Below, one piece after another: positions 3,952-58,632 of a stretch of DNA of 64,000 bases (within the stretch, counting starts at the first letter, position 1; each line of letters starts with the position of its first letter). The notes beneath the pieces are model-generated. The model had not been told where the DNA came from. It did no database searches and was given only the letters and a program-made list of their open reading frames with translations. Both the position numbers and the translations under genes were made by a program. The stretch is from Tubulanus polymorphus (taxonomy: Eukaryota; Animalia; Nemertea), in the NCBI RefSeq assembly GCF_964204645.1, contig NC_134026.1:21672150-21736149 (forward strand), given 5' to 3'.

Positions 3952-32558
<28,607 letters not shown>

Positions 32559-39109: not shown

Positions 39110-40605
39110 ATGCCGCAAACGTCGAACAAGTTCAGCTGATCTCCAAAACATATCCACAAATACTTATAACAATTCCACAAAACAGCCCAAATTTCTTCTG
39201 TTTTTCATTTCTACAGTTGAGAACCATACGTGCGCATGACCCACCAAAATATTTTTCGGACAACTAGGCTTTTACAGTTGTTTGTCTCAAAGCTGCATTT
39301 TATTTTATTATCATTAATGTTTTACTTAACCTATGTCCTTATCCCAGGATTCATAGCGAGTCTCCAAAGTATTTCCTTTTCATACAAATTTCAAAAAGTG
39401 CTTAATTTCTTAGGTACCCCAAATGATTTTTTGGCGTTATGTGTTTTACCAATGACCAATGTTAAATGCCTATTTATTTGCTGTGGGCTTCAACAAACTT
39501 TATGTGACGGATTAGGACGAGAGTCGCAGTCTTATATGATAAGAAAAGTGTCACAAAAATGCTTAGCTTACTTCTACCTCGGCCTAACTACATTTACTGC
39601 CGGTATGAACCCTGTTGTATCAGACATAGGATTTTTAATGTGCTGAATGTACAAAGTACAAAAAAATATAATTGTACCAAATTATAATATCTTATTTTGC
39701 ATTTGTTATACCTGGTAACAGAATAACCGCTATAACTACCAGGCAGCTGTAGTTTAATGCCACATTAAGCGTTTAAGACTTTGTATTTTTTTAGCTGGTA
39801 TTCTTGTTAGTGCTATATATACACTGTATATACATGTTGTAAATATTTATTACCCTGTAATAAATCTGAAATCAAAAGTTTATAATTGCTTTTTTGTCAA
39901 TATTTTAGGATGTATTGACGGAGTTAAGCTAAGCTCAGGTCAACTTGCAACCCGACTAGAGTGGTAAGAACAGTGATAGTACTCACAGGACTGTTGATTG
40001 TCGATTCATGTGTCTCATGATCTTAAGAGCGCCAGGTCAATTATAACTCGATCATCACCACGTGACGTTACACTCATCCCTGATTGGCTACAATGATCTG
40101 ATCTGGTTGTAGAAACATCTTGTTCTATCCGCACGATCAGTTTGCGATCAATCCACCGCAGTTGCAAGTAAACTAGTGCCGATAAGGTTCCCGATTGTCA
40201 CTGACTCGCCTCTGATTTGATCTGATTAGGTCGTAAGTCGATCAGAGCTTAGCTTTAGTTCCAATGGAAGGTTTATCAGTGGTGGATGGACAAATTCTGT
40301 GTGAGAAAATGTTGAGGGAAGTACTTACCCTATAAATGTTCAGAAATGCATGCACTGTAGACATCCGGAGAATGATTCTTCAACAACACTTGAAGCAACC
40401 AATTGATGGACCCAACATAAGCTCTGCATTCACAATGGACAATTCATCCTCCCTGGCAGGGATTCGAACCTGGTGATGGCTTAGAGACTGCTGTGGGTAT
40501 GAAATGATGGTTTCATGCCATGGCTGTGTAGTAATTACATTTTGCACCCTCAATCAAAGTAAATAGGCTCTTCAAGGCAACAGATCAATCACTAAACTGG
40601 GCATA

Positions 40606-40673
40606 CAGTCATACCTCGATTTAACGCCACCCTTGGGGATTCCTGATATTTCTGTTAAATCGAGGTATGACTG
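40606..40673. mobile_element. Minimal 68-bp Tc1/mariner (pogo-like) MITE
   Basis: Perfect 20-bp TIR cagtcatacctcgatttaac / gttaaatcgaggtatgactg with TA on both sides. Confidence 0.75.
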
Positions 40674-42042
40674 TACATATATTTTATAGTTCAAACCAAT
40701 GCGAGTATGTTCCAAGTTATGGAGGTCAAGCGACTCAATGAAGGCAATTTGAAGATAACCATGTACTGGTAACCTACCAACTGTAGGCTGGACCCATATC
40801 CACTACTAATAACAATAATCAAAGATGAACTGCCTATATAATTCAAGTAGGCGTCTTTATTGCAATAACCAGTTATTACATGTACTATAACATTGGCCAT
40901 AATAATAATGTACAAAATTCTGTAGAATTACTAATCAATACATAAGAAAGCATGGTCCAGATTTTCCATAAATTTGTCGCAGACATTGATTTAGTAAGAA
41001 TTCATGTAAGGGGCCGTGCATCAAGTATGTATGCTATAGGTTTTTAACCCCACGTCCACAGTATGTATGCCTTTAGTACATTTATCTTACTAAAACCCCT
41101 TTTGCAAACATACTTTGTGACCATACACCCTCCCCCCAATAATGATGTTGACAGGCAGTGAATTAATAGGTATTGATACGATGTTCAAAATTTAAAATAG
41201 ATGAATATTTAATCGAAAAATCACTCCTGTGCTGAACATCAAGTCCCCCATATAAAGTAATGCACGTTTTGGCTTGACCCCCCACCTTAACCATGTACAC
41301 TTTTGTACTGATTCACCCACATACTTTCTGTACAGCCCCAAACAGCATACCAGTAGCTATTTTATAATTCTGTGTTGTATGTACAGCAAACATTAAAATT
41401 AATTTATATAAACCCATTATGAATAAAATATCCAGATAACATTTCTTTTTTAAATATTCATGTACATAAATACCAATCAATAAGGCCTTTCACGCGCCGA
41501 AAAAACCAGTCATAATTACACTTATAAAAGTCCTATCTACAATCATTCATTAATTTTGTTTTTGAATGAAGTAATCAACTTTTTCTTCTACTATCAACCG
41601 AAGTTACCTATCACACAAACGCTTAAATATAAAATTGCCATCAAATTCACAATGCCATCAAGATTACTAGTGCCTTTAGGTCAGAGCTCACAAGACCATT
41701 CTGTCTATCTCGAGACGAATATCATTTCAGCCATCAAACTTTTCCCCGAATTTCCGAGGAATCATATGATTAAACCTAACATACGCAATCAAGTCAGTTG
41801 TTCAGAAATCGAGGCGATACCCAGGGTAAGGTAGAATCTACCCTGACGAACTTTGTTTAATTAAAAATCTTACAAAACACAAGCCCAAATATACTGAATC
41901 TTGATACTTTTCATATTCTTCCGTAACATTTGTCAACGTATTATGAGTACTACTCGGATTGAATCGAAATTATTCAACTCATATCACACTTTCCAAATCC
42001 TTTTTCTACCCTTTTAATTGGCGCACATCTACATTGCATATT

Positions 42043-45000
42043 TCACTGATTTGAACTGCGTAGCGGTAATTTCGAACGCGGGGCACTTTTCGGCGTCGCC
42101 GCATTAGTTTTCTTTTTTGGTGTCCGAGTTGACGAAGCGATTCGAGCTTTTTTCACTGGCGCTACGGTGGCAACCTTCTCTTTCTGGGCGATTTCTATGT
42201 TTTCTTTCGATTCAACATCGGCGAGCTGGAATAATACAAAGATCGGGTTACAAAATTTGCCAATATAAGAGATGGTGATCTTAATGGTAATCATTCCATT
42301 CATTTCAAATGATAAAATCAAATTGTTACCCGTAGATCTTCACAACTGAAGCCAATTGTATCGGCAATAGCAGAATCAGCTGTAGAGTCCTACAAAATCA
42401 TCAAGTACAAACATCAATAGACTGAAATAGTGACATGAAGCATTGCTGCAGGTGCAAAATGACGATTGCCATTTTTCAAGCAGTCAAGAGTTAAAAGCAG
42501 ACTAATACCAGTAAGTATTTACCAGACCAATTGATCAAAAATGATTTAGGCCATTAACAGAGAAGTACATACTTAGTGTCAGTTCCAAGTTGCTTCCAGT
42601 TGACACATTACTTCCAGTTCACTGGGGAAATGTACTAAGTGCCATGGAACTGGTGCCAAGTGTGCCAAATTTCATTAATCAAACAACAAATTTACCTTAG
42701 AAATACTAGCTTCACTAGCTACACTTTCTTCACTCGACGAATTCTGAAGAAGATATAAAGGTAATCATTTTCATCTTTTAAATAATTCCATCGCATGGGT
42801 CAAATTTTACGCACAGGGATCATTCATATTTATTACGTACGCATGAAATTTGACTTTTTCATCCCCCCCCTTCCTGTACGCAAAATTTCCATATACATAA
42901 AGCATAACAGTACGCAATTGCAATGACTCCTCCCCTAATGCGTATTTAATAAATGAATGATCCCAGAATCAAATTGAAATCCAATTCTATCTATTACTAA
43001 CCAGTAAACTATAATCGCTATCCTCTGGTAACGGCACCGTCGTCGCCTGGTTCAGATTCTCCTCTTGCATCATTTTGTGGAATTGACCGAGCAAAATATC
43101 GTGAGGCTGCGTTTTGACGATTCGTTTCGGGTACGGGAACTCGCGTCGAACGGGAGTCGTGCCGGTCGGCACGTCTTTCATCAGTTCCTCCGTGACGAAT
43201 CGCTCCACGTTTGCGCCTTGATATTTCACCGATTGCGACGTTCGCGCGGCGAAATCGCCCGCGCTAGATTCGTGCTCCGCGACAGAGTGCCGCAATTGAT
43301 CGACGTTCTCTTCGTGGTATTCCTGTTGCATGGACATCAGACTGATAATCTCCACCGTTCGACTAGAACTATTCGATGCAAGCTCCTAAAGTGAGAAATA
43401 TTCGAAGTAAGAAATAGAACTCGGGCCGAACTAGGGGTCCAGGGATACATAATGCCTGTTTGTTTACCTGACAATCAGTAGAGAGCTGTTCATTCATTGT
43501 TTCTAATGTCGAGCTGTATTCATTTACTGAAGCTAATAGATCATCCGTATGCCGAGTGCAACTCTGAAATAATCAAAAAAATTTTTCAAAAATTATTTAC
43601 CAGCTCATCTTAATACTGTAAATAATGGCAAATCAAAATTAGGCTAAACAAAAATGATACCTTGTTTCTCCACAGCGGCCGGGTCATTTTTGTAAAATAT
43701 GATAAAATTTATAAACAGTTCATTTCTATAGCGGCCGGGTCTGTTACGGTAAAATTGATCACGATTTTAAAAAAAGTAATGTATAGGGTAGATAGGCGGC
43801 CGGCCGGGTCAACATTTAAGCTCAGCAGAGCGGAGAAACAAGGTATCAATTTTTTTTTAGCCTTATTTAACAAACCTCTTCTTGTTGCTTCAATAGATTT
43901 GACACAGCAGATTCAACTTCACATTTTGACTCTTCTAATTGACTAGTTAATTCTTCAACCTAAAAAACCATACAGATAATCTTATTCATGTAACAATGCA
44001 CTTATATTGTTCTTTCAATCGAATAAAATTTGTCATCCTACTACAGTTCAAGCACTAAATCTACCCTCTGTAACTCTTGAGAAAATATCAAACTTGCAGA
44101 GTTTTTTTTTTCAATTTCAAGACGTAGCGACAATACGATAAAGCTTTTTCATCGAACATTTATTTATTACTAATTCCTGCAATAAGTCTTGGCCAACACG
44201 CGTTGATCACTGTGCATTTTAAAACGTCAAAGCTGGCTGTGATATGGACAATACACAAACTACACAGTCACAGCCAACTTAAACATTTCGAAAATTTGCA
44301 CCACCTCTTTTATGCCTGGAGTCACAGTTTCGTAGATATCAAAATGCGTCAAAGCAGGCTGTGATATGAAATAACACATAACACAAACACAACCATGTTT
44401 AACGTATCAAAATATCCTATTTCTCGAACTTTTTCTGCATCAACCACAGTCTTTAAGTCGTCCATCGTGGGCAGTATTAGTAATCACTGACATCACTTCA
44501 GACGTCTCTATTTTGGAGACCCAATTCGTATTTCCAATATCGAGCGCAGGTTATAATTTTGATCAATTTAACATTATGTTGGTCACAACTACTGAAGTTA
44601 GCTTCACGGCAAACACCATTCTTTATTATTATTATTATCACTTATTTTCCAATCCTGTCATAATAGTCACCGTAAAACGTCAAAGCTGGCTGTGATATGA
44701 TTACACTCAAGTGAAGAGATAATATAGCATACTCACAGTTACCTTTAACGTTTTGAAATGACCAGTTCCTTTATGAAGACGCGCAAGTAGCATTCAAAAG
44801 ACGTCAAAGCTGGCTGTGATATGATATAACCGTACATAATCACAGGTACCTTTAACGCCTCTTAGAAATGCCATCAATTCGTAGGATTCAGACATTCCTC
44901 TAAGACTTTTCATCGTTGAATAGCTTTGTAAATCGTAGCACGTCAAAGCTGGCTGTGATATGACCTGAATTAAACATTGCATACTCACAACCACCTTCAA

Positions 45001-48000
45001 CGCACCACAAAATTACTCTCTAAAAATCCATGTAAAATCTATACAATCACTTTTGCAGCATTCTTACAATTCACTGGTTTTATCTACAGTCCAGACACGG
45101 TCCCTACCGATCAGTCATTCCTGGATATAAGAAGTTTTCAAGGAGAAAATTTCAAATTTTGAGTGTCCATATCACTTAGGTGCCAATTACTGTAGAATCC
45201 TCCTTAATTAGTACTGTTATCTCCGTTAACCGGTTACAAAGTGGTTTTGTAAGCAAATTTGTATCCTTAACACCACTAAACTCAGTTTCTAATTCGGTAA
45301 CTGCTAATGGGATTAAAAAAATTTCTGGTCCGAACTGTACCAAGTTGTTGAGGAATCAAGTTGTAGGAGCCTGCTCGATATCGTGCTAACATTTAACCAA
45401 GCCTAATGATATTAGAGCATATTTTTGATATCGAACATTATCGTTGCGATGGTAGGTAGAACAGAATAATCGCAACACGTCAAAGCAGGCTGTGATATGA
45501 ATAAAGTCTCGACATATTCACAACCAGTTTCAACGCGTCTCGGTTACTATTTCCAATGGCCATGAATTCCAAGAGGAATCGCATTGAACACCGTGTTACA
45601 CCCTAATAAGCTACCTTGGCACGTCAAAGCAGATTGTGATATGGTATGACGAACATATTCACATAATCACAATCAACTTCAACCCGTCAAAATAACCAAA
45701 TCTTCTTTCATGAGAACAGCAATTTCCGACCATAAACTTAATTCATTATCCCGGAAACACTAATAAGTCATAATAACGCGGCATCGAATGCTATTTCAGT
45801 CGACGAAAGTGAAGAAAAGCTTAGAGCATAAAATAGAAACATACCTTCTTTATGTGCGATTGTGTTACCGACTGGTCAATTTGTGATTGCTTTTCATACG
45901 TGCACCTCGCTATGGCAGGATCTTCGTGTACAGTTTTCAATGAACTGAAATTAAGCGGAAGACAAACGTGTTGATTGATTTTCGTTACCACTTGCTTCGT
46001 TCTCAACCACCGAAAAAATGTGCATTTTTAGAAATATTGAAAGAAAACATACCATAAAGTTAACTCTTCCATGTCAGTGACCAACTTTCTCGTTTGTTCG
46101 ACATTCTCGGTGAGCTGTTACACAAGAAGAAATGACATTATCATAAATGGCTATTCAGAAAGTCTAAACAGTTAACAGCAGGACCCAGTTCCACAGCCAT
46201 GAGTTGAGAGTCAACTCTGAGCTCCTTTTCAAATGTTCCACTTATATTTATTTGACTTGCTCTTCCCCCGTCTCTCCTCTGAGATGCAGGTAAGTGGCTA
46301 CCCACTTAAGACTCACCCACCACAACTGTGAACTCAATCATTCAATTAACTTACACCTGCATGTCCTTGCTTTAGATGATTTTGTTGTTCACAAACCATA
46401 TTGTCCAGTAAATCGCTTATTTCCGACATGACTTTCTTTTTAATATTTTGTGCTAGTTCATTATGCGAAGATGTCAATTGCGATGTGAGTTGATTTTGAC
46501 GGTCGAAGCTCTGATTGGACTGCTGTATGTAACTGACAACATGCGATTGTAACGAATCGACTTTTTGCTGTTGGGTTTGTACGAAATTCCTGAGAAAGCT
46601 TTCTTGTCGAGCCATCTGAAAATCATCAAAAATTTCATATTCTAGTTTTTAGTGCCTATTCAGACCTATTCAAGCACGAAAGCTTTTATAGAATTTTAAG
46701 AAAAATCAAATATGTTGATACAAAATGTAGAATGCTGTTATATTACACCTACCTGTTCTTTCACCATTGCACTGAGGTCCTGTAAAGCCTGGTGTTGTCC
46801 ATCAAATCGTCCTTGAATAGTATCCATCAGAGGTTGATAAAGTGTTTGTCTAAAATTGCCCAAATGCGATATCTGACCAGACTAAGAACAAAAAAATAAA
46901 ATTAAAAAAATATTTCATGTTAGAATAAAATTTTTCTATAAAGCATCAGTACGAAATACTTTTCCAAGATTTTACCTGCCGTTGTTGTATTTTATGCGAT
47001 AGACTTTCAGTTGTCTGTTGAAGATTCTGTGAATAGCTTTTGTGATGATTTTGTACGAGATCTTTATGTTGATGAACAGCAATTAGAAGAGTTGACGTAG
47101 CCTCGGATAACGCTTTCATTTCGTCCCTTCGTTCTTGGATACTTGAATCTACATTGCACGAAACCAACCGAGTTGAGAAGTAACAATTGAGATTATGTTT
47201 TTAACCGGGGTCCCTATAGATCAATCACTCCCCCGATACATGTTTCAAAGGAGAAAAATTTCAAGGAAGCGCGGAACGCGAGTACATCAGTGCCTAATTT
47301 CATAAGCAAATTTCCATGCTGGACACTACTAAACTTGGTTTCTACTTCGGAAGCCACCTAATAAGGTATCAAAAAGATCCTGGTTCCAACTGAACTGAAT
47401 TAGGCAAAGTCCAGTGCACAACCACTTCTAAAGTATCTAGTTGCTTATTTCTCAAAATTGAAGGAGTTTTTTTAAAGGAGTTTCTGGCATTTTGCTCAAA
47501 TTAGGACTTTCCACCACCTTCAAAAGCATTTTCTGTTTAAAAGCAGTTTTCAAGGAATCGTATCAAGGAGTCATCTCATAGGGACTGTGAGAAATCATCG
47601 AAAACTGTCACTGGTTATAAACATTCAAAAATTTCAAATGAGCTACAACAAGGTCTATGCAGGAGTGAATGATTTTTACCTAACATGTGCTGCATCGTCC
47701 GACACCAGTCAGTCTGAGATGAGCTGAACGACTGCAGATCCGCATCGATGGTACCGATATCGCTCGTGAACTTCGATAGAAACCGCGTCTGACACGATTC
47801 ATTTTGCGTCTCGACGCTGCGAAACCGGTCGAGTTTAGCGTGAAGACCGATCACATCGGTCGTCGACTCATCGACCGTTTGTAATAACTGCGACAAAAAA
47901 AAAAGAAACACGTTTACACTAACGTTGATACCGGGATTAATCAAAATACTATAAGAATGATCGTAGATAATAAAGAGGGGGTAATCGCACGGAAAAATCC

Positions 48001-51000
48001 TATCTATCCAGTGCAAATCTAGCGAGAGACTTTTCTTCAGGGCTGCTAACCTTTGAAAAGTTCTATCAGTTACAACTGAATTTTTTTAATTGAAATAAAT
48101 ATGTCAGAGAAGATCAAATCAATCAGTATCAATATTAAAGCTCTCAGTAAAATCTTTCATATTTCTATATGCATCAAACAAATCAAATCAGCATTTCTCG
48201 ATCTTACTACATAATTCAAATTCTGGTAGGCCTACTTGAATTCTAATTCTAATTCTAATTGGGAATACACATATGACATTGGGCCAGCGTTGAATATAAT
48301 CACCTCATTAGCTTGTGAATAAAGTGTCTTCTCGGTTTTCACGTGTTCGTTGACGAGATGTTTTTGAGCGTTGCGTTCGTAAATCGTCGTTTGCAGTTTC
48401 GTTTTCGTTTTGTCGAGCGTTTTCGTCGTCTGTTCCAAATTCACAGTCGTCGTGTGCAGCTGTTCGGTCATTTCGTCCAATTCCGCTTTCGTTATATTGA
48501 ATAGATCGGTAATCTTCAAGAATTCGTCGGTCGTCAATTTGATCTTCTCTTCCAGGTCGATTATCACGTCGCGTTGTTGAGAAATTTTTGTGGTCATTTC
48601 GCTGCAAATCAAATCAACGCAAAATGTTTTAACTAGAAATATTTTGATCCGATGATCAAACTTGACCCGTACTCCTAGAGAAGATGTTATGCCCTATGAA
48701 AGAGCAAATACGATCAACTTACTTGTAATTTTCGGTATCCAAATAAATTCCATTCTTTTCTCTGGCGGCTAGCAAATCTTTCCTCAACTTTTCGAGCTCT
48801 TCTGTGTATTCCTACAGTAAGTGTACATTGACATTCATTAGGATCCCGTCGAACAAAAAAATTCTGGATCCAGTTCCACAGTTCTGAGTGTAGATTCGAC
48901 TCCCCAAGTTATAACATTGAAAATTAACTAATTTCAACTCTGTCGTTAAAGCTTAACTCACACTGTGGAACTGGGTCCAGGGAACCGGGCTAAATTGAAA
49001 ATATAAGATTAGTAGAGATAAAAGTAAGTGATATAGGCATTACACGATCCACATTACACACCTTCAATAATGTTTTCTTCGATAATTTCTGATTAACCTC
49101 CGGTCGATTGGTAATATTCTTAGCTCTGTAAGCGTAATCAAGCGTGCTCAACGTTTCCTTTAAAAATAAATCAGATAAACAATCAATACCTAGACTGTGT
49201 AAACGTGTTTCTAAAATAAATGGCCAGCTACGTACTTCTAGGTTAGCCGATGCCGGGGAGATAGTGGCGATGATGGACGTTTTAGTTCGTCCTCCAAGGG
49301 AATCTTGAAGCAATCTCGTCAGTTTACTCTCCCTGAAACAAGAACCAAGCTACATGTAGAGTGGAACCTTCAGGAGACCTGAAAATCTTGTTCCAATATG
49401 ATAGATAACAGGGACTCTCATCACAGATGATGTTCTGTATCAAATTTTCTTAATTCATTGAAGTCTAGTTTGTTATTGCAAATGAAACTTAATTTCATGT
49501 CGCAACTGGCCAAGCTTTTGATGCCTACCTGTACGGAACGTGTGGCGCGTGTTCCACAAGAGCCGTTATAACGCGTCCCAGGGTCAACAGACTCTGATTG
49601 ATATTACCAGCTTCGCGAGCTTGTTTGTTGATCGCTCCCGACCGTCCGATATTTTCACTACCAGCAAGATCGACCTAAGCATGGAAAATTAACTAAATTG
49701 TTACTGGTGGCAGACCTTAATTGGAGTCAACTTTATCTCAACTTTGGGATTGATTTTTTGGAAGCATGGCTTATAAACATACCAGATTCAGTTTCCCAGT
49801 TTTCAACAGTTCTTCGCCTTCAATGTTGTTCTCTTTTATGTGGATCGTCACAGAGAAAATTGTGTGCGAGCGACTGTAATGAAGACGAAACCTTTATGTT
49901 TTTTCTTACAAACGAAGCTTTTCCTAATCACACGATGTTGGCCATCATCATATAATGGATGCAAATTTTCCTGGACTTTTAGGGGAGACGAACCTGGATC
50001 GTGCATTCATAAGCGTCTCCGCGGTGCGCCTCTTGTGCGCTCCTTTTTCGAGTATCTGATAAACTTCATCCTTGTTGTGCACGACAACTTCATCCAGTCC
50101 TTGGATAACGACCGACCCCTATTGAAAATCAATAAACAACCATCTCAGCATTTTTAAGCCTTAAATTGACGAAAGGTTCAACAACCGAATCGATTTCAGA
50201 CCTTTCTGGCGGAATCTTCGAAAATCCGTAATCGCAACGAGTCGTCTTGATTTTTCAACAAGTCAAAAAGCTCTTCATTGTACAATTCCATGTATGAGAC
50301 GCGAACTGAGTATTCTATATCCTGAAATAGAAGATCAATGATGTTTGATATAATGAAGTAATTTTTTTGCAATTTAATCCCCTGCGGTTCCTGCTCACCA
50401 AGGATTACACTATAAACCATGAGCCGGTTCCATAGTTATGGTTTAGACTTTTAAGACCAATCTAAGACCATTTTAATTCTTTTATAGCTAATCTAACAGC
50501 ATAAAATAAAACCAATCTAAAGATTTTAAAATCACTTTTGGATTTTTGTCTCAACTATGGAACTGGCAACAGATTATTGCATCGTATTATATCATTATTT
50601 TTACATAAGAAGCATTATTTCCAATAGCTAGATTAGAAAACAATTTAAGACACGTTTTCGTTAATGGCACTTTCCTTCAGACCTGAACACTATTCATATT
50701 GTACTAATTTTAGTGTAACTTATTAGTAGGCCGATTGAGCATTGTTGATTAGATTTTCACGGACCTTTTTGGGACTGTTATTCCTTACCCAAAATATGTT
50801 TAGGACACCTAGAAGTGTACAGTCACCAGGATTTTGAATCCAAGAACACCGGATTTACCAGACTATGATGCTCAAGACAATTTAAAATCACTCTTTAAAC
50901 CATTTCTGTCAGATAGATATCCATACGACCATGGTTCGCACAGTAATATGAATTCAAAATTCCCAAGTATTTCATGGGTGATTTTTCAATTTTCCCAAAT

Positions 51001-52728
51001 GCAAATGCACACATATCGTCATGCTACAGTCAACATATTAGCGGTGACTGGTTAATAAAGGTGATTTTCAAGGGAAACTGCTGAAGAAAGTTGCCCTTGG
51101 CAAATGCAATTTGTGAAATGTAATGAATTTTCCAAATACTTCCCTGATATGAGGAAGATTTTTCAAATTCCCAAATATTTCCAAACCGGGAATTATTATT
51201 TAAAAATTCCCAAGTTTTCCCAATTTCCCTGTTCTGTGGGAACCATGTACGACAGAGTTATGTCAAAATCTTTTACCTGTTGTTGAAGGCGATGAAACAA
51301 CTGATTCATTGTTCTTGGCACGATACCAGCTAGAGGGTCGTCCTCCCAGGATAAATCACAATCAGGACTTCTTTCACCTTCCATCGTAAAAGTTTTACCG
51401 GTTCCAGTCTGCCCGTATCTACCAGAAAAACGACATGGATAAATATTAACTTGTTAACTTTATGGTCTTTCTCCACAAATTGTAATTGCAATTGTAAATC
51501 AATAAAGCTAACAGACAGCATAACCCATAGGATGTACATGTATCAATACAATGACAATTGATCTCAGGGATGAAAATGGCCCATATTGAAAGTCGGAAAA
51601 TATTTTCAAAAAAAAAAAGAATTTTTTTAGGGAACAAAAATCAGTAACTTTTAGCCAAAAAACTTACTTCCTTTTGGTCAAAATGTTAATAGTTTGGGCC
51701 TGAATTATAGCCGCTTTTTGAATGAGACGCCATATTGGTTTCTCCGACTCCACAGTTGTACTAACAACTGCCAAAAACCGTCTTAAGGAGCGCTCCGATG
51801 TGACGCCCGCGATTGAGGTGATTAAAGCGATTGAGGTGATTTACACTGTTCTCAGGAACAAAGAAAATGTTACAAAAGGTCGGAAATCTGTCTATGGTCG
51901 GAAGATTTTCATCCCTGTGATCTACTCTCAAACATTTTTCTTAATAAAATCCTCGGCTCATAACTTACGCAAATATGGTGCAGTTATATCCGAGCAGAAC
52001 TTCATCGAGAATTGGTAAAACTACTGATTTGTAGAGTTCGATTTGTTTCGAATTCGGTCCGAACACTTTGTCGAACGTGAATGTCTTCGACGTCGACGCC
52101 AGATGAGGCTTCTCTTGTATGAAGATTTCCTTCTTATCGGGCCGACATTCAATGACCGAAAAACATCCATTTTTTCGCTCATAGTTGTTCATAGGTCTGA
52201 AAATTGACAAAACGAATATAGTTACACAATATTTCGGATTCGAAAATCGTTGGGAGAATTTTCCGAAACGCGGATTGTATCGGGCACATGTTTCACAAAG
52301 TCAGACACAAAGAATCAGGGAAATCGAATGAAGTTTTGCCAATCCACAGAAAATTTTCTCAATGTCGTTAATAGTGACAAGTATCAGGTCGGAATCTATT
52401 CCGATAGTTATAAAGGCAGGTTTTGGATTTCTTCCAACCCTCAAGTGCATTCTTATGGATCGAATTCCGTGGTTGTGGGTAAGAGTTAACTCATGAATTG
52501 AAATTAGTTCATTTTCGATGAGTTAACTCAGGGTCAAATCATCACTCAGAATTGTGGACCCGGGCAACGGTGCTTTATTTTGGAACAGAATATACACTAG
52601 ACATATTCCAAAGTTGGAATATGTGTTAATCAAAACCTGCCTAGGTCCAGAAACTTTGAAACTGACCTGCATCGCACAACTGAATGAATGTGCTGATTCT
52701 TTTCTTTTTCCTGTCTTCTCGGGGCCAT
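42043..52728 (-). CDS. KIF11: Kinesin-5 (KIF11/Eg5/BimC family) mitotic motor, 23 coding exons, ~1093 aa
   Basis: Exons: 52667-52728, 51969-52196, 51277-51418 ([10 protein letters not shown]-loop), 50202-50321, 49994-50118, 49783-49873 (SRSH), 49529-49674 (DLAGSE...HVPYR), 49236-49332, 49062-49157, 48723-48811, 48304-48601, 47680-47887, 46976-47148, 46753-46881, 46355-46615, 46053-46114, 45845-45944, 43876-43959, 43468-43563, 43002-43385 (BimC box PTGTTPVRR), 42696-42743, 42330-42389, 42043-42225 (KEN box, KLPLR tail). Total 3282 nt, all phases consistent. Confidence 0.96.
42816..42964. mobile_element. MITE
   Basis: gggatcattcat..ttatta / taataaatgaatgatccc; a similar element lies at ~41010-41338. 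Confidence 0.55.
43642..43862. mobile_element. Harbinger/ISL2EU-like MITE
   Basis: ggctaaacaaaaatgataccttgtttctcc / ggagaaacaaggtatcaatttttttttagcc with TTA duplication; internal cggccgggtc x3. Confidence 0.7.
44212..44300 (-). ncRNA. mir-2: pre-miR-2 family hairpin 1 (mature 3p TATCACAGCCAGCTTTGACG)
   Basis: Plus-strand cgtcaaagctggctgtgata at 44225-44244 is the reverse complement of miR-2. Complementary star arm tcacagccaacttaaac at ~44268-44284. Confidence 0.9.
44335..44416 (-). ncRNA. mir-2: pre-miR-2 family hairpin 2 (TATCACAGCCTGCTTTGACG)
   Basis: Core 44347-44366; star arm cacaaccatgtttaacgta; closing stem gatat/atatc. Confidence 0.87.
44666..44762 (-). ncRNA. mir-2: pre-miR-2 family hairpin 3 (TATCACAGCCAGCTTTGACG)
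   Basis: Core 44678-44697; star arm tcacagttacctttaacgtttt; lower stem gtca/tgac. Confidence 0.87.
44790..44871 (-). ncRNA. mir-2: pre-miR-2 family hairpin 4 (TATCACAGCCAGCTTTGACG)
   Basis: Core 44802-44821; star arm atcacaggtacctttaacgcct; lower stem gcatt/aatgc. Confidence 0.88.
44928..45016 (-). ncRNA. mir-2: pre-miR-2 family hairpin 5 (TATCACAGCCAGCTTTGACG)
   Basis: Core 44941-44960; star arm tcacaaccaccttcaacgcac; lower stem gtaa/ttac. Confidence 0.87.
45085..45365. repeat. Interspersed repeat inside the miR-2 cluster
   Basis: ggtcccta..gatca..ggagaaaa..aagcaaattt..cactaaact..gtttcta is also found at ~47204-47400. Confidence 0.5.
45466..45547 (-). ncRNA. mir-2: pre-miR-2 family hairpin 6 (TATCACAGCCTGCTTTGACG)
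   Basis: Core 45478-45497; star arm tcacaaccagtttcaacgcgt. Confidence 0.87.
45610..45696 (-). ncRNA. mir-2: pre-miR-2 family hairpin 7, seed variant (TATCACAATCTGCTTTGACG)
   Basis: Core cgtcaaagcagattgtgata 45622-45641; star arm atcacaatcaacttcaac carries matching changes that keep pairing. Confidence 0.8.
48867..48977. mobile_element. Palindromic MITE related to family B
   Basis: ccagttccacagt / actgtggaactgg arms, CWG flanks; relatives near 46180, 50420 and 52420. Confidence 0.65.
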
Positions 52729-53599
52729 ATTGTTGTCGTTGTTGCCGTTAGATATCAGTAATAAAAGCGACTACGATTTCTTCTTTCTTTCTACTCGTAT
52801 CATATCATTATCAAATAACCCTGCAAATACAAGATTTTATTTTTACAATAATGAGTATAATTTCGATTCTCAAAAGGCAATATAAATCCCATTTTACTTC
52901 ATCAGTTCAGCGAACTTAGAATTCGATGATTAAATATGATTTCTTTACAACTTTTACATATTTTCCTGCATTTTCATGTGTATGCAAAGAATAAAGATGG
53001 GACTGGCAATTAATGAAAAAATATCTCTCTTCTTCTGATGATGGCTAAAGTAAATGTGTCAACTTAAAAATCATTCACTCTTTCACATAGCCTATTTACT
53101 TCTACTAATAATAATATCGACAGAGAAAGTTTCTCAGAAAAAAATGTCGGTTTTTTCTTCTAGAAATAAAATGTCCTCGATCCAAGCCTAACAAACATAA
53201 CACTAACAGCCAAAAGTTAGAACTTTCACCATACACGACTAACTACAGTCGAAAATTACTGTCCAGTTTGAATAATTATTAAATACCTCTCCAGTTTGAG
53301 CATAAAAATTGCGCTCAAACGGATGACAAAATTATCCATCATTTTTAAATCACCCGCTCCCGCTCCTTCCGTCCGGGGATCTGCAGCCAACCGCCATTTT
53401 TATTTTTTCCGTGGGAGGAAAGAGAAAAAGATGCGAACAAATTTCATCGTCTTCGAGTCAACTGTCGAACGTTCGTCAATAATTTGACCGACATAACTAG
53501 CGCAATTAGTTGCTCAAACTTTCTGTTGTATTTCATTTGATATTCATTAAACGAAAATCGGTAAAATAACACTTACAAATTGCTAAATTCGCTGGTCGC

Positions 53600-53725
53600 T
53601 TCGCCGTCTTTCTTTGGTGGTTCCGAATTTTTGAAAATGGTGCCGCAAAAGCTCTCAGCCAATGACAGCGACTGTCACTTACTTAAGGCGCCACCTGTCA
53701 GCGATCGACGGAAGTAGTCGAGTTC
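53600..53725 (-). promoter_or_regulatory. Putative KIF11 promoter with CHR (TTTGAA), E2F/CDE-like and CCAAT elements
   Basis: TTTGAA 53630-53635, GCCGCAAAA 53642-53650, CCAAT 53659-53663, next to a probable non-coding first exon (donor gtaagt at 53571-53576; acceptor near 52821). Confidence 0.55.
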
Positions 53726-55365: not shown

Positions 55366-55551
55366 CCAAGCTCAATTCGGGTTCGGGTTAGTTCGGGATT
55401 ACCGATGTTAAATTGTAAACAAACCGAGCCGTCGTCGCTGAGTACTTTGAGAGAGCTGTTGGATCGCGCACTGTGTAGACACGGAACTGTCCTTTACTTC
55501 CTAAATCTCTGTGGATTTACATACACCCTACTCACTTTTACGGCTATAAAC

Positions 55552-58500
55552 ATGAGCTTAAACGTATTGCTTCAAGCTGCTGAATACTTAGAACGAAGGG
55601 AACGAGGTAAACTATTGCCTGATCATGATGTTTTCGTAGTGGTTTTTGCGATTTATTATGTAGAAATTAGTAGAGCACTGTGACGTGTGCTGCGCTGTTG
55701 TTTTTTGTGTATTGACGTTTAGGATATATGTACTGTGTACACTGTTGTATTTGCCACGTAGGCAAACCGTTGGATGGACCACTTTCAGTTTAACGACCCA
55801 TGTAAAAACCGCATTGTTTTTTTTTGTAAGAAAAATGGCTGAGAATCTTGCCACTGAGCCAGATCGTGGATTTGAAATATTGATTATGAGTAATTGAAAT
55901 ATTTTCACCGGGAAGGATCTCAAAAGTCCTACTAACTACACCTAAGACCAAAGTCAAACAAATTCTTGCTCTCTCTTTCCATATTTCACAATTTGTTAAG
56001 AAGAATGTTATGCATAGGCCAACATGAAATTAGGTTGAAATGAAATCATGGTTATTGAAATTGTTGATTGTTGCATTTAATCTGCGTTACTAAGGCTTGG
56101 TGACCTATCTGACCTATCATTATTTAATTCCTTCCCTTTTGAGGTGGCTAGGATACTAAACTAATCCTAGGCATGTCCCTGAGTGGACAAATTACTCTAA
56201 GCAAACATCACTGGTATTCGAAATCAAATTTTTAAAGGCGTTTGTGTGTGTTTTATTTCATTTTGATCATTCATTTTCGTAGAAGCCGAACATGGATATG
56301 CAACTACGTTACCAATGCCAACATCTATGGATTATCACTCGCGAAGCAGAAAGATTAAATCGAAAAAATCTCAGGGAAACCGGTAAGAATCTTAGTGTTT
56401 TAGGCCATATTTAGCGTGGGTTAGAATTCTAAAAAGTTGATAGTTCTACGGAAATAATTATAGAACTCGATTGATAAACAAATGTAGCCTACAATGAGAT
56501 CGGGGAATTTTTTTTGTATTGTGCAACGATTTCGAAACTGTCACATGGGAGTGTGTCGGCACGTAGCCTCGAAAAAATTTAGAAAGACTTTATTTCTCTT
56601 TTATCATCCGTTTGCAAATGTGAATCTAAAGCGCTATCACTTTTCTTCCTTTATTAGATCCACGCACAATGAACTAGAAAAGAACAGGTATGTATCTCTT
56701 GATGCTGCTGATTACTGTTTAGGCTACGTGTACGTGTAGCTGGTGGTTTGTGTACATTATGTGCAATGTCAAGGTCGTTTGTGGCACTGAGAGAGTAGAT
56801 AACTGCGCATACTGAAGCTCCGTGTGTTATTGATCTTTAGTGCACTTTGACTTTCTATAATGATGCATCATCATGTTTCACGATGATTGGATGTTGCATG
56901 TTCCGGTGTTTCGATGTGATTTCTTTTCGCATTAATTAATAACATTTCTTCGAAAATTTGTATATTTTCAGGCGTGCGCACCTGAGGTATTGCCTCGAAG
57001 GTCTGAAGGATATAGTGCCTTTGGGGACGGAAACTAGTCGACATACGACGCTAGGATTATTAACCAAAGCGCGGAATTTTATACAGGTTAGTGTGTGGGA
57101 CAAAAAATGAATCGGTGACCCCACATTGTTTGCACTGTGAAAGCCAGTAAAATTCGGTCTATTGTGATTATGTCTGTAAGCTGAAATGGGAATGAGTCTA
57201 TTCTATTGTTCAGAACAGGTTTTGGTTTGTTGCTCAACATACAGACAAGAGTTATATTAGAATTAGCTTTGAAAATAATAGTAATCTTATTTTCGAATAG
57301 AAAATGCCTTTTTCGTTAAGATAACCATTTCGATTGTAGCTCACTGTGTTTATATGTATTATTTGTCTTCTTCCGACACAGTCATTACAGGACAAGGAGC
57401 GAAAACAGTCGTTAATGCGGGAACAATTATATCGGGAACAGCGTTACCTGCGCCGGAGACTAGAACAATTAAAAACCGAGGAAAACCTGCAATATCGCAT
57501 ACGCAATGAACGGAGTATTAGTGAATGCAGCGCTTCCACATCATCCACGTCCACGTCTATTTCTGAATCCGGAGAGTCTGGTAAGCATTCAATATAATAG
57601 CTAGCTAGTTGTAGTTTTAACCGGGTTTTTTACAGGTTTTGGAAAGTTTAAGAAAATGGGAATTTTTTTGAGGCCCTGGAAAAGCTATGTTTGGTTTTTT
57701 TTTTCTGTATCAGAAAATGGTCTCAATATAAAATAGCTATGAATTTTGAATTTTAAGCTATGTCTAAATGTCTTACTACACATTTGATATTAACAAACAC
57801 TTAGTATTGATAATTGGCACTTACTTTGAATGGACCTACATTCATTACCTGTTCAAGGTTGGCAATGTGTAACTTCGGGGTATGGAAAATTAATTTAGGC
57901 AACCTGTAAGAACCCTGTTTAATTGAATCAATAATTGAATACATTAGAGAATTATGTTAGCTACCTGCGCCGCCATGTAGATATGGTACACATTCCTGTA
58001 CATCGGGGTCCAGGTGTCTATAGTTGATTTAGAGCCATCTGTCGTCATCATCAGAGAAAAGTAGGTTATATCATGAGGTGCTCTCTCGCCTTTTTGATAC
58101 CCCTTTGTACCGGGTAGGGCATGCGCCTTTGTCGTTGGGTAGAATCTTTTGTACCCTGCGCGGCTCAAAAACCGGGGTAGATCATCACAATAATGTGAGT
58201 GTACGTTAATTGTTGCAGTGTGCATTCATGAGCGCACTATGAACGTGTGCCGACGTATGCCGGCATGTGGCCTAGATTTCCTGGGCAGGTGATAAATATA
58301 ATGGTCTTTGCGGACAAAGCATTTTTTGTGATGAATGTAGAATGTACCAGTTGGCGGCAAAATCAGTTAAAGCCCATTCTGTAGCGTGCGTCAATAATCT
58401 AAAGCCCAAGCTGTTGTTTTGAAATTGGATTCTATGGCTCGCCGTTTGTTCAGCGACTTTTTTTAAAAGCTTCGCCTTTTTTTTGAAATGCCATTTTTCT

Positions 58501-58632
58501 CTTGCAGATGAAGTAGACATACTGGGGTACAATAGCAATAGTAATCATAGTGACACTGACGACCACAGCAGTACCGGCAGCAGCAGCATGTGTTTCGGAG
58601 CTAGGCACCTGACGATTTCGGAATCTTTATGA
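55552..58632 (+). CDS. MXI1: MXI1/MXD (Mad) family bHLH-Zip Max-interacting repressor, 6 exons, ~207 aa
   Basis: Exons 55552-55606 ([18 protein letters not shown], Sin3-interaction domain), 56283-56382 (EAEHGYA), 56658-56687 ([10 protein letters not shown]), 56972-57086 ([18 protein letters not shown]...[10 protein letters not shown]), 57382-57580 (zipper, [13 protein letters not shown]), 58508-58632 (DEVDI...*). Likely co-orthologous to vertebrate MXD1/MXI1/MXD3/MXD4. Confidence 0.94.

Follow-up and report, generated by a model that had tools for sequence, protein, structure and literature searches.

RESULTS

The KIF11 locus and its intronic hairpins

The 64,000 nucleotides (nt) analyzed here (the window; contig NC_134026.1, positions 21,672,150 to 21,736,149) come from Tubulanus polymorphus, a member of a ribbon-worm genus (Nemertea). 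The minus strand of the window carries the coding span of KIF11, the mitotic gene for kinesin-5 (42043-52728 in window coordinates, which are used throughout), and intron 17 of this gene (43960-45844) contains seven repeats that are almost certainly genuine genes of the mir-2 microRNA (miRNA) family, all on the minus strand and thus sense to KIF11.

The host gene is defined by protein identity, Pfam domains, and a spliced contig. A 23-exon model running from 52728 to 42043 translates to 1,093 amino acids and is identical to the NCBI protein P0001, named kinesin-like protein KIF11-A of T. polymorphus, in line with the host proposed in a preliminary description of this DNA. The protein has the Kinesin (motor) domain and Microtub_bind, the kinesin-associated microtubule-binding tail. 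Of the 22 coding introns, the longest is intron 17 (GT-AG, phase 0, 1,885 nt), which lies between exon 17 (45845-45944, upstream) and exon 18 (43876-43959, downstream), both present in the gene model and in the spliced contig. In that contig, from a public run, 45843-45944 (record 2458-2559) directly abuts 43876-43957 (record 2560-2641), skipping the whole intron (contig X5 record 16); because exon 17 is joined straight to exon 18, there is no hidden exon within the cluster in that transcript. Two of the contig sets are spliced, and these were used for exon joins only; gaps in their coverage of the hairpins were given no weight.

The mature core shared by the seven repeats (repeat family D1) starts at 44225, 44347, 44678, 44802, 44941, 45478, and 45622, and a second repeat family (D2) proved to be the star arm of the same hairpins. 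In the direction of transcription the hairpins are hp1 (45615-45689; predicted mature start, 45641; Rfam score, 35.2 bits; folding z-score, -5.0), hp2 (45471-45540; 45497; 49.4 bits; -4.5), hp3 (44934-45007; 44960; 55.6 bits; -6.9), hp4 (44795-44862; 44821; 44.5 bits; -5.0), hp5, which has a long loop (44671-44755; 44697; 39.1 bits; -4.6), hp6, the weakest fold (44340-44409; 44366; 42.0 bits; -3.0), and hp7 (44218-44290; 44244; 46.0 bits; -6.1). Each forms a single stem-loop of -20.7 to -39.4 kcal/mol, with z-scores of -2.97 to -6.86 against 200 dinucleotide shuffles; no shuffle folded as low for six of the copies, and 2 of 200 did for hp6. The predicted precursors measure 58 to 77 nt, against a family expectation of ~60 to 75 nt. 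The best Rfam family is mir-2 (RF00047) for all seven, on the minus strand (E values of 6.5e-9 to 1e-3; 35.2 to 55.6 bits). The preliminary description, which had placed seven miR-2 repeats in this intron as minus-strand 3' arms of stable stem-loops, is thus borne out in position, strand, fold, and family.

With mature starts positioned by homology to the mir-2 family, the canonical K-box seed lies on the 3' arm and is intact at positions 2 to 7 in all seven copies and at positions 2 to 8 in six. The earlier claim of a seed 8-mer in every copy therefore stands for six hairpins and fails for hp1, which has A rather than G at mature position 8; the hp1 change spans mature positions 8 and 9, and the star arm has changed to match, so that these positions still pair.

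Mean pairwise identity in a seven-way alignment is 94% for the mature arm, 75% for the star arm, 43% for the loop, and 44 to 45% for the basal stem. Mature arms this similar beside loops so diverged indicate old copies under selection. Pairing is retained, with 90% of alignment cells pairing versus 34 to 47% in slid controls, so the pattern of conserved mature arms and diverged but pairing star arms described earlier holds up. Double-sided stem changes occupy 18 cells versus 8.4 in shuffles, none of 500 of which reached as many; since these shuffles take no account of relatedness and the same seven sequences supplied the structure, this supports selection without proving it. Contig depth is single copy (~39 to 44 in contig set X1) across 44044-44791. 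Judged from sequence, the seven hairpins are very probably working miRNA genes.

No eighth mir-2 copy was found: a model built from the seven scores its next best match outside the cluster at 19.5 bits, and a whole-window Rfam scan returned no other convincing miRNA in the 64 kb. Three further candidates were set aside. A decayed hairpin suspected near 44560-44620 gains no support from the seven-copy model; around 44465, a miR-8-like seed lacks an Rfam match and does not fold into a single stem-loop below -19 kcal/mol; and an alternative fold at 45515-45604 overlaps the star arm of hp2 and was left uncounted. The widest spacer of the cluster, 537 nt between hp2 and hp3, contains a high-copy dispersed repeat (45095-45300, borders approximate), where contig depth runs into the thousands and ends are loose.

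K-box sites in the KIF11 3' untranslated region

The KIF11 3' untranslated region (UTR) is 912 nt long, with the stretch beyond 41800 and the end at ~41131 inferred from the extent of the spliced contig. It holds two predicted K-box target sites of the 7mer-A1 type on the minus strand: site 1 (41982-41988), in the part covered by the spliced contig (X5 record 17), and site 2 (41609-41615), a sequence match in the inferred part. Two such sites compare with 0.19 expected (P = 0.014; 5,000 dinucleotide shuffles of the 912-nt UTR). Two or more occur in 2 of 140 window tiles, and 2 of 210 permuted 7-mers occur twice, one of them the site itself. Elsewhere in the window, full 8-mer K-box sites lie on the plus strand at 15517-15524 and 28388-28395.

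Origin of the cluster

To place the cluster within its family, we compared the seven hairpins with 45 Rfam-passing mir-2 hairpins from 20 metagenome loci. In the resulting tree a branch with support of 99/98 separates the seven from all the others, and each of the seven carries a star-arm change resulting in a U-G pair (columns 16/83). One clade with a shared star-arm change suggests that one founder hairpin was amplified in place, which fits the tandem amplification proposed in the preliminary description, and the divergence suggests that this amplification is old enough for loops and spacers to have lost similarity. The hp5-hp4 and hp7-hp6 blocks show 69% similarity, a likeness that suggests a two-hairpin duplication with no clean match to the tree. 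Compared with other mir-2 genes, then, the seven differ in a shared derived star arm, in lying far from the 45 compared hairpins, and, for hp1, in altered mature positions 8 and 9. The cluster is likely a secondary mir-2 locus, in which one hairpin was copied into the KIF11 intron and then tandemly amplified.

The usual arrangement of mir-2 genes

An intron of PPP4R1 hosts the ancestral mir-71/mir-2 cluster in oyster (PMC4138081) and, as ppfr-1, in Caenorhabditis elegans (PMC3410857). A search of metagenome contigs with the 18-nt mature motif returned 95 stretches in 81 loci, or 77 contigs after merging four contig-sharing loci; some of the 77 are near-identical, so they do not represent 77 independent animals, and no nemertean could be recognized among them. 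By the cutoff of this analysis, 54 of the 77 fold as hairpins, and 30 carry miR-71. Exons of a HEAT-repeat gene occur on the same strand in 27 contigs and on the opposite strand in none, and named homologues identify this host as PP4 regulatory subunit 1 (PP4R1). The cluster intron in these loci falls after ~residue 141 of the Tubulanus PP4R1 protein. In all, 37 of the 77 contigs have miR-71 and/or PP4R1 exons, and the phosphatase-4-like ancestral host named in the preliminary description is supported by these loci and by the oyster and C. elegans reports.

The Tubulanus cluster resembles the ancestral one in having tandem mir-2 hairpins, 120 to 540 nt apart, sense within one intron. Unlike it, the cluster has no miR-71 upstream and sits in KIF11 rather than after ~residue 141 of PPP4R1. 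No Rfam mir-71 match was found in the window at E values up to 1, whereas the same model scores 51 to 73 bits beside mir-2 in metagenome loci, and the best window match to the miR-71 arm of metagenome locus L027 has 7 mismatches in 23, all in agreement with the earlier failure to find miR-71. A miR-71-like 7-mer at 45710 was rejected as a miR-71 hairpin by the model scan and the arm comparison. Nor does the window contain a PP4R1-like match or PP4R1 exon. PP4R1 of T. polymorphus is listed on a 27.8-Mb contig and KIF11 on a 31.9-Mb contig, so the two are probably unlinked. The KIF11 cluster is therefore not the ancestral mir-71/mir-2 cluster. The preliminary description had called it relocated; it does lie outside PP4R1, which is listed on another contig, but it may be an extra mir-2 cluster rather than a moved one.

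KIF11 matches none of the 81 metagenome loci, a negative that is weak for short contigs because the stalk encoded by the flanking exons is poorly conserved and the exons for the motor are 3 to 8 kb away. Viral contigs gave no match to the mature motif, and prokaryote genomes gave 49 single matches, none with a KIF11 match, which we read as chance background. Neither miR-71 nor PP4R1 occurs in five loci of at least 2 kb; chance matches in bacterial genes account for two of these, and the other three showed no Pfam domain in the 48 of 162 listed open reading frames that were scanned. Three animal-like mir-2 loci (L015:594-1761, L017:909-3409, and L035) have neither miR-71 nor a PP4R1 exon on the contig, and the L017 hairpins cluster with PP4R1-hosted ones. 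Assigning metagenome loci to phyla from PP4R1 scores proved unreliable.

DISCUSSION

Comparison with known systems

Much of what is seen here belongs to the family at large. Earlier work has described the mir-2 family together with its 3'-arm product and the birth and death of its tandem copies (PMC3384581), and the Tubulanus hairpins share with the family (RF00047; MirGeneDB MIR-2; PMC3384581) the seed, the 3'-arm mature product, a conserved mature arm opposite a diverged but pairing star, and lineage-specific tandem amplification. Flatworms, for their part, duplicate the whole mir-71/mir-2 cluster (PMC4405270).

A close parallel is found in oyster, where two mir-2 hairpins without miR-71, cgi-miR-2a and cgi-miR-2b, lie sense in an intron of SMC4 (PMC4138081). 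Like the KIF11 cluster, this pair is a miR-71-free secondary mir-2 locus of a lophotrochozoan, sense in the intron of a mitotic gene; the KIF11 cluster differs in having seven copies rather than two, another host gene, and different central and 3' mature sequence. The oyster pair also has measured expression, while the KIF11 cluster is known here from sequence. Its four arms correlate with the host at r values of 0.91, 0.79, 0.92, and 0.59, and miR-2a-5p reaches 2,798 reads per million in blastula, with none of the 15 remaining samples in the table above 63 (PMC4138081). By analogy, the KIF11 cluster may work in the same way.

Drosophila miR-11 offers a second parallel, as a hairpin belonging to the miR-2 seed family in the cell-cycle gene dE2f1 that limits the proapoptotic output of E2F1 and thus proliferation-linked apoptosis; its demonstrated targets are the fly genes reaper, grim, sickle, and hid (PMC4109884, PMC3321623). 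It differs in being one hairpin of another subfamily, beside miR-998, with the transcription factor itself as host. Also in flies, Yorkie acts via miR-2 members on reaper (PMC3744074).

We found no report of mir-2 in KIF11 in a literature search that covered few subscription papers. MirGeneDB 3.0 includes the nemertean Lineus longissimus, and the passages of its paper and supplement that were searched yielded no mir-2 copy number or host (PMC11701709); the miRNA section of the Platynereis article names no mir-2 host (PMC12257675), and the text of the MirMachine 2 preprint makes no mention of nemerteans. The suggestion in the preliminary description that the host arrangement was undescribed is accordingly upheld for KIF11, for which no host report was found in print, but not for the broader arrangement, as miR-71-free mir-2 in the mitotic gene SMC4 had been published (PMC4138081). 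KIF11 is apparently a new host for mir-2; the family, its tandem growth, and its host switching were already known.

Proposed host coupling and alternative explanations

The reading that we favor, at a probability of about 0.65, is that of a secondary seven-hairpin mir-2 cluster lying sense in KIF11 intron 17 and cropped from KIF11 pre-mRNA. Going by family homology, Drosha and Pasha would crop each hairpin, and Dicer would release a 3'-arm product of ~22 to 23 nt with the canonical 2-7 seed. A polycistronic intronic cluster of this kind would yield several near-identical products with one seed and could serve as a dosage device. Co-transcription of the cluster with KIF11 is probable by analogy, and both the sense orientation and the position in the longest coding intron of the gene favor it. 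miRNA output would then follow KIF11 transcription, so that dividing cells, eggs, and cleavage embryos would, as the oyster SMC4 pair leads us to expect, receive an extra, several-fold dose of one seed. K-box mRNAs would be the targets, a group that in flies includes proapoptotic genes. In a weaker step, the products might damp KIF11 mRNA via the two 3' UTR sites, a feed-forward loop able to sharpen its decay; going by the site matches, such feedback on KIF11 mRNA is doubtful.

A number of points weigh against this reading. The Rfam mir-2 gathering score of 45.5 is reached by three of the seven hairpins, the other four scoring 35.2 to 44.5 bits. A CNNC motif at +16 to +18 is present in two to three of the seven and a basal UG near -14 in three to four, depending on the assumed mature length and with no chance comparison made, and the cropping and release of the seven hairpins is a homology-based prediction. 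The tree has 71 columns, with no rows from identified nemerteans or other named lophotrochozoans, and gene conversion or concerted evolution could also give one clade. As for the coupling, intronic miRNAs are often uncoupled from their hosts, with 21 of 76 oyster pairs strongly correlated. Egg and blastula are, in oyster, likewise the stages of highest expression for the ancestral host PPP4R1 and its mir-2 copies (r up to 0.93; PMC4138081), so relocation to a mitotic gene may alter expression only slightly. Birth-and-death drift is how Marco et al. (2012) explain the number of mir-2 copies (PMC3384581). The UTR sites were spotted post hoc, by eye; there is no 8-mer K-box site in the KIF11 3' UTR, the 6-mer site count is not significant (P = 0.15), predicted pairing at the two sites is weak (-8 to -13 kcal/mol), and site 2 sits in the inferred stretch.

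Several of these points would also fit an arrangement in which the mir-2 genes work but the host is incidental, either because the cluster is driven by a promoter of its own, within or close to the intron, or because host timing is irrelevant, with copy number a matter of neutral birth and death. Marco et al. (2012) conclude that mir-2 copy number is dominated by drift (PMC3384581), fly mir-2 loci occupy the unrelated hosts spitz and CG7033, strong correlation is missing in 55 of the 76 oyster host-miRNA pairs (PMC4138081), and a C. elegans reporter for intronic mir-71 was driven by its own 2.4-kb upstream region (PMC3410857). In Tubulanus, however, merely ~155 intronic bases (45690-45844) lie upstream of hp1, the cluster is sense to KIF11, and the oyster pair does vary with its mitotic host SMC4 (PMC4138081); we thus regard an incidental host as unlikely. 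The cluster might instead be the main mir-2 cluster of the species, moved off PP4R1 and miR-71 in a Drosophila-like split, in which case most miR-2 would depend on KIF11. In size, the seven copies amount to a full cluster (oyster PPP4R1 has six; PMC4138081), both central-sequence variants of other clusters are present among the seven, and flies show such a miR-71/mir-2 split. Yet the seven form one clade instead of pairing with ancestral paralogues, oyster retains its PPP4R1 cluster and adds a second locus (PMC4138081), and a mitotic promoter would be ill suited to the predicted neural role of the family (PMC3384581), all of which makes a moved main cluster quite improbable. That the repeats are an unprocessed, degenerate satellite or transposon remnant resembling mir-2 is hardly credible: a high-copy repeat does lie in intron 17 and several transposon-like hairpins in the window, but arm-specific conservation, compensatory changes, the correct strand and arm, the Rfam mir-2 match in all seven, and the single-copy depth over 44044-44791 all speak for miRNA genes.

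The ribbon worm adds a third lineage with a miR-2-seed miRNA inside a proliferation gene. Where there had been two isolated cases there is now a pattern that can be tested, namely whether secondary mir-2 loci favor cell-cycle hosts. One might speculate, against what we consider the odds, that capture of K-box miRNAs by cell-cycle genes has occurred in protostomes on three or more independent occasions (E2F1 in insects, SMC4 in oyster, and KIF11 in a ribbon worm) and represents a design, recurrent and under selection, by which dividing cells obtain extra miR-2, here sevenfold and with feedback on the host mRNA via two K boxes. The cluster further provides a synteny marker with which nemertean relationships can be examined, and a locus that can be tracked through cleavage and regeneration. 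Because the family, its tandem growth, and its host switching are known, specialists may see a neat case rather than a surprise.

Other features of the window

At the 5' end of KIF11, 38 unaligned bases of the spliced contig precede 52820, a position just after a splice acceptor, and the gene therefore probably has an upstream noncoding exon, or a spliced leader, in 52821-53700 (minus strand). Candidate upstream donors lie at 53576 and 53682, close to candidate CCAAT-, E2F-, and CHR-like motifs at 53635-53693. Head-to-head with KIF11 is a plus-strand gene (~55490-58600) whose exon translations resemble the Myc antagonist MXI1/MAD, a tentative name, and a minus-strand exon at ~32170-32254 resembles the start of an STK32-type protein kinase.

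In KIF11 intron 18, an element at 43638-43857 combines terminal inverted repeats of 26 nt with very high contig depth and resembles a miniature inverted-repeat transposon. Long, near-perfect inverted-repeat hairpins of -40 to -70 kcal/mol occur at 9110-9215, 10345-10480, 23865-24005, 26990-27140, and 40585-40695; three of these five match plant miRNA models weakly, far under gathering, and all five are probably transposon derived.

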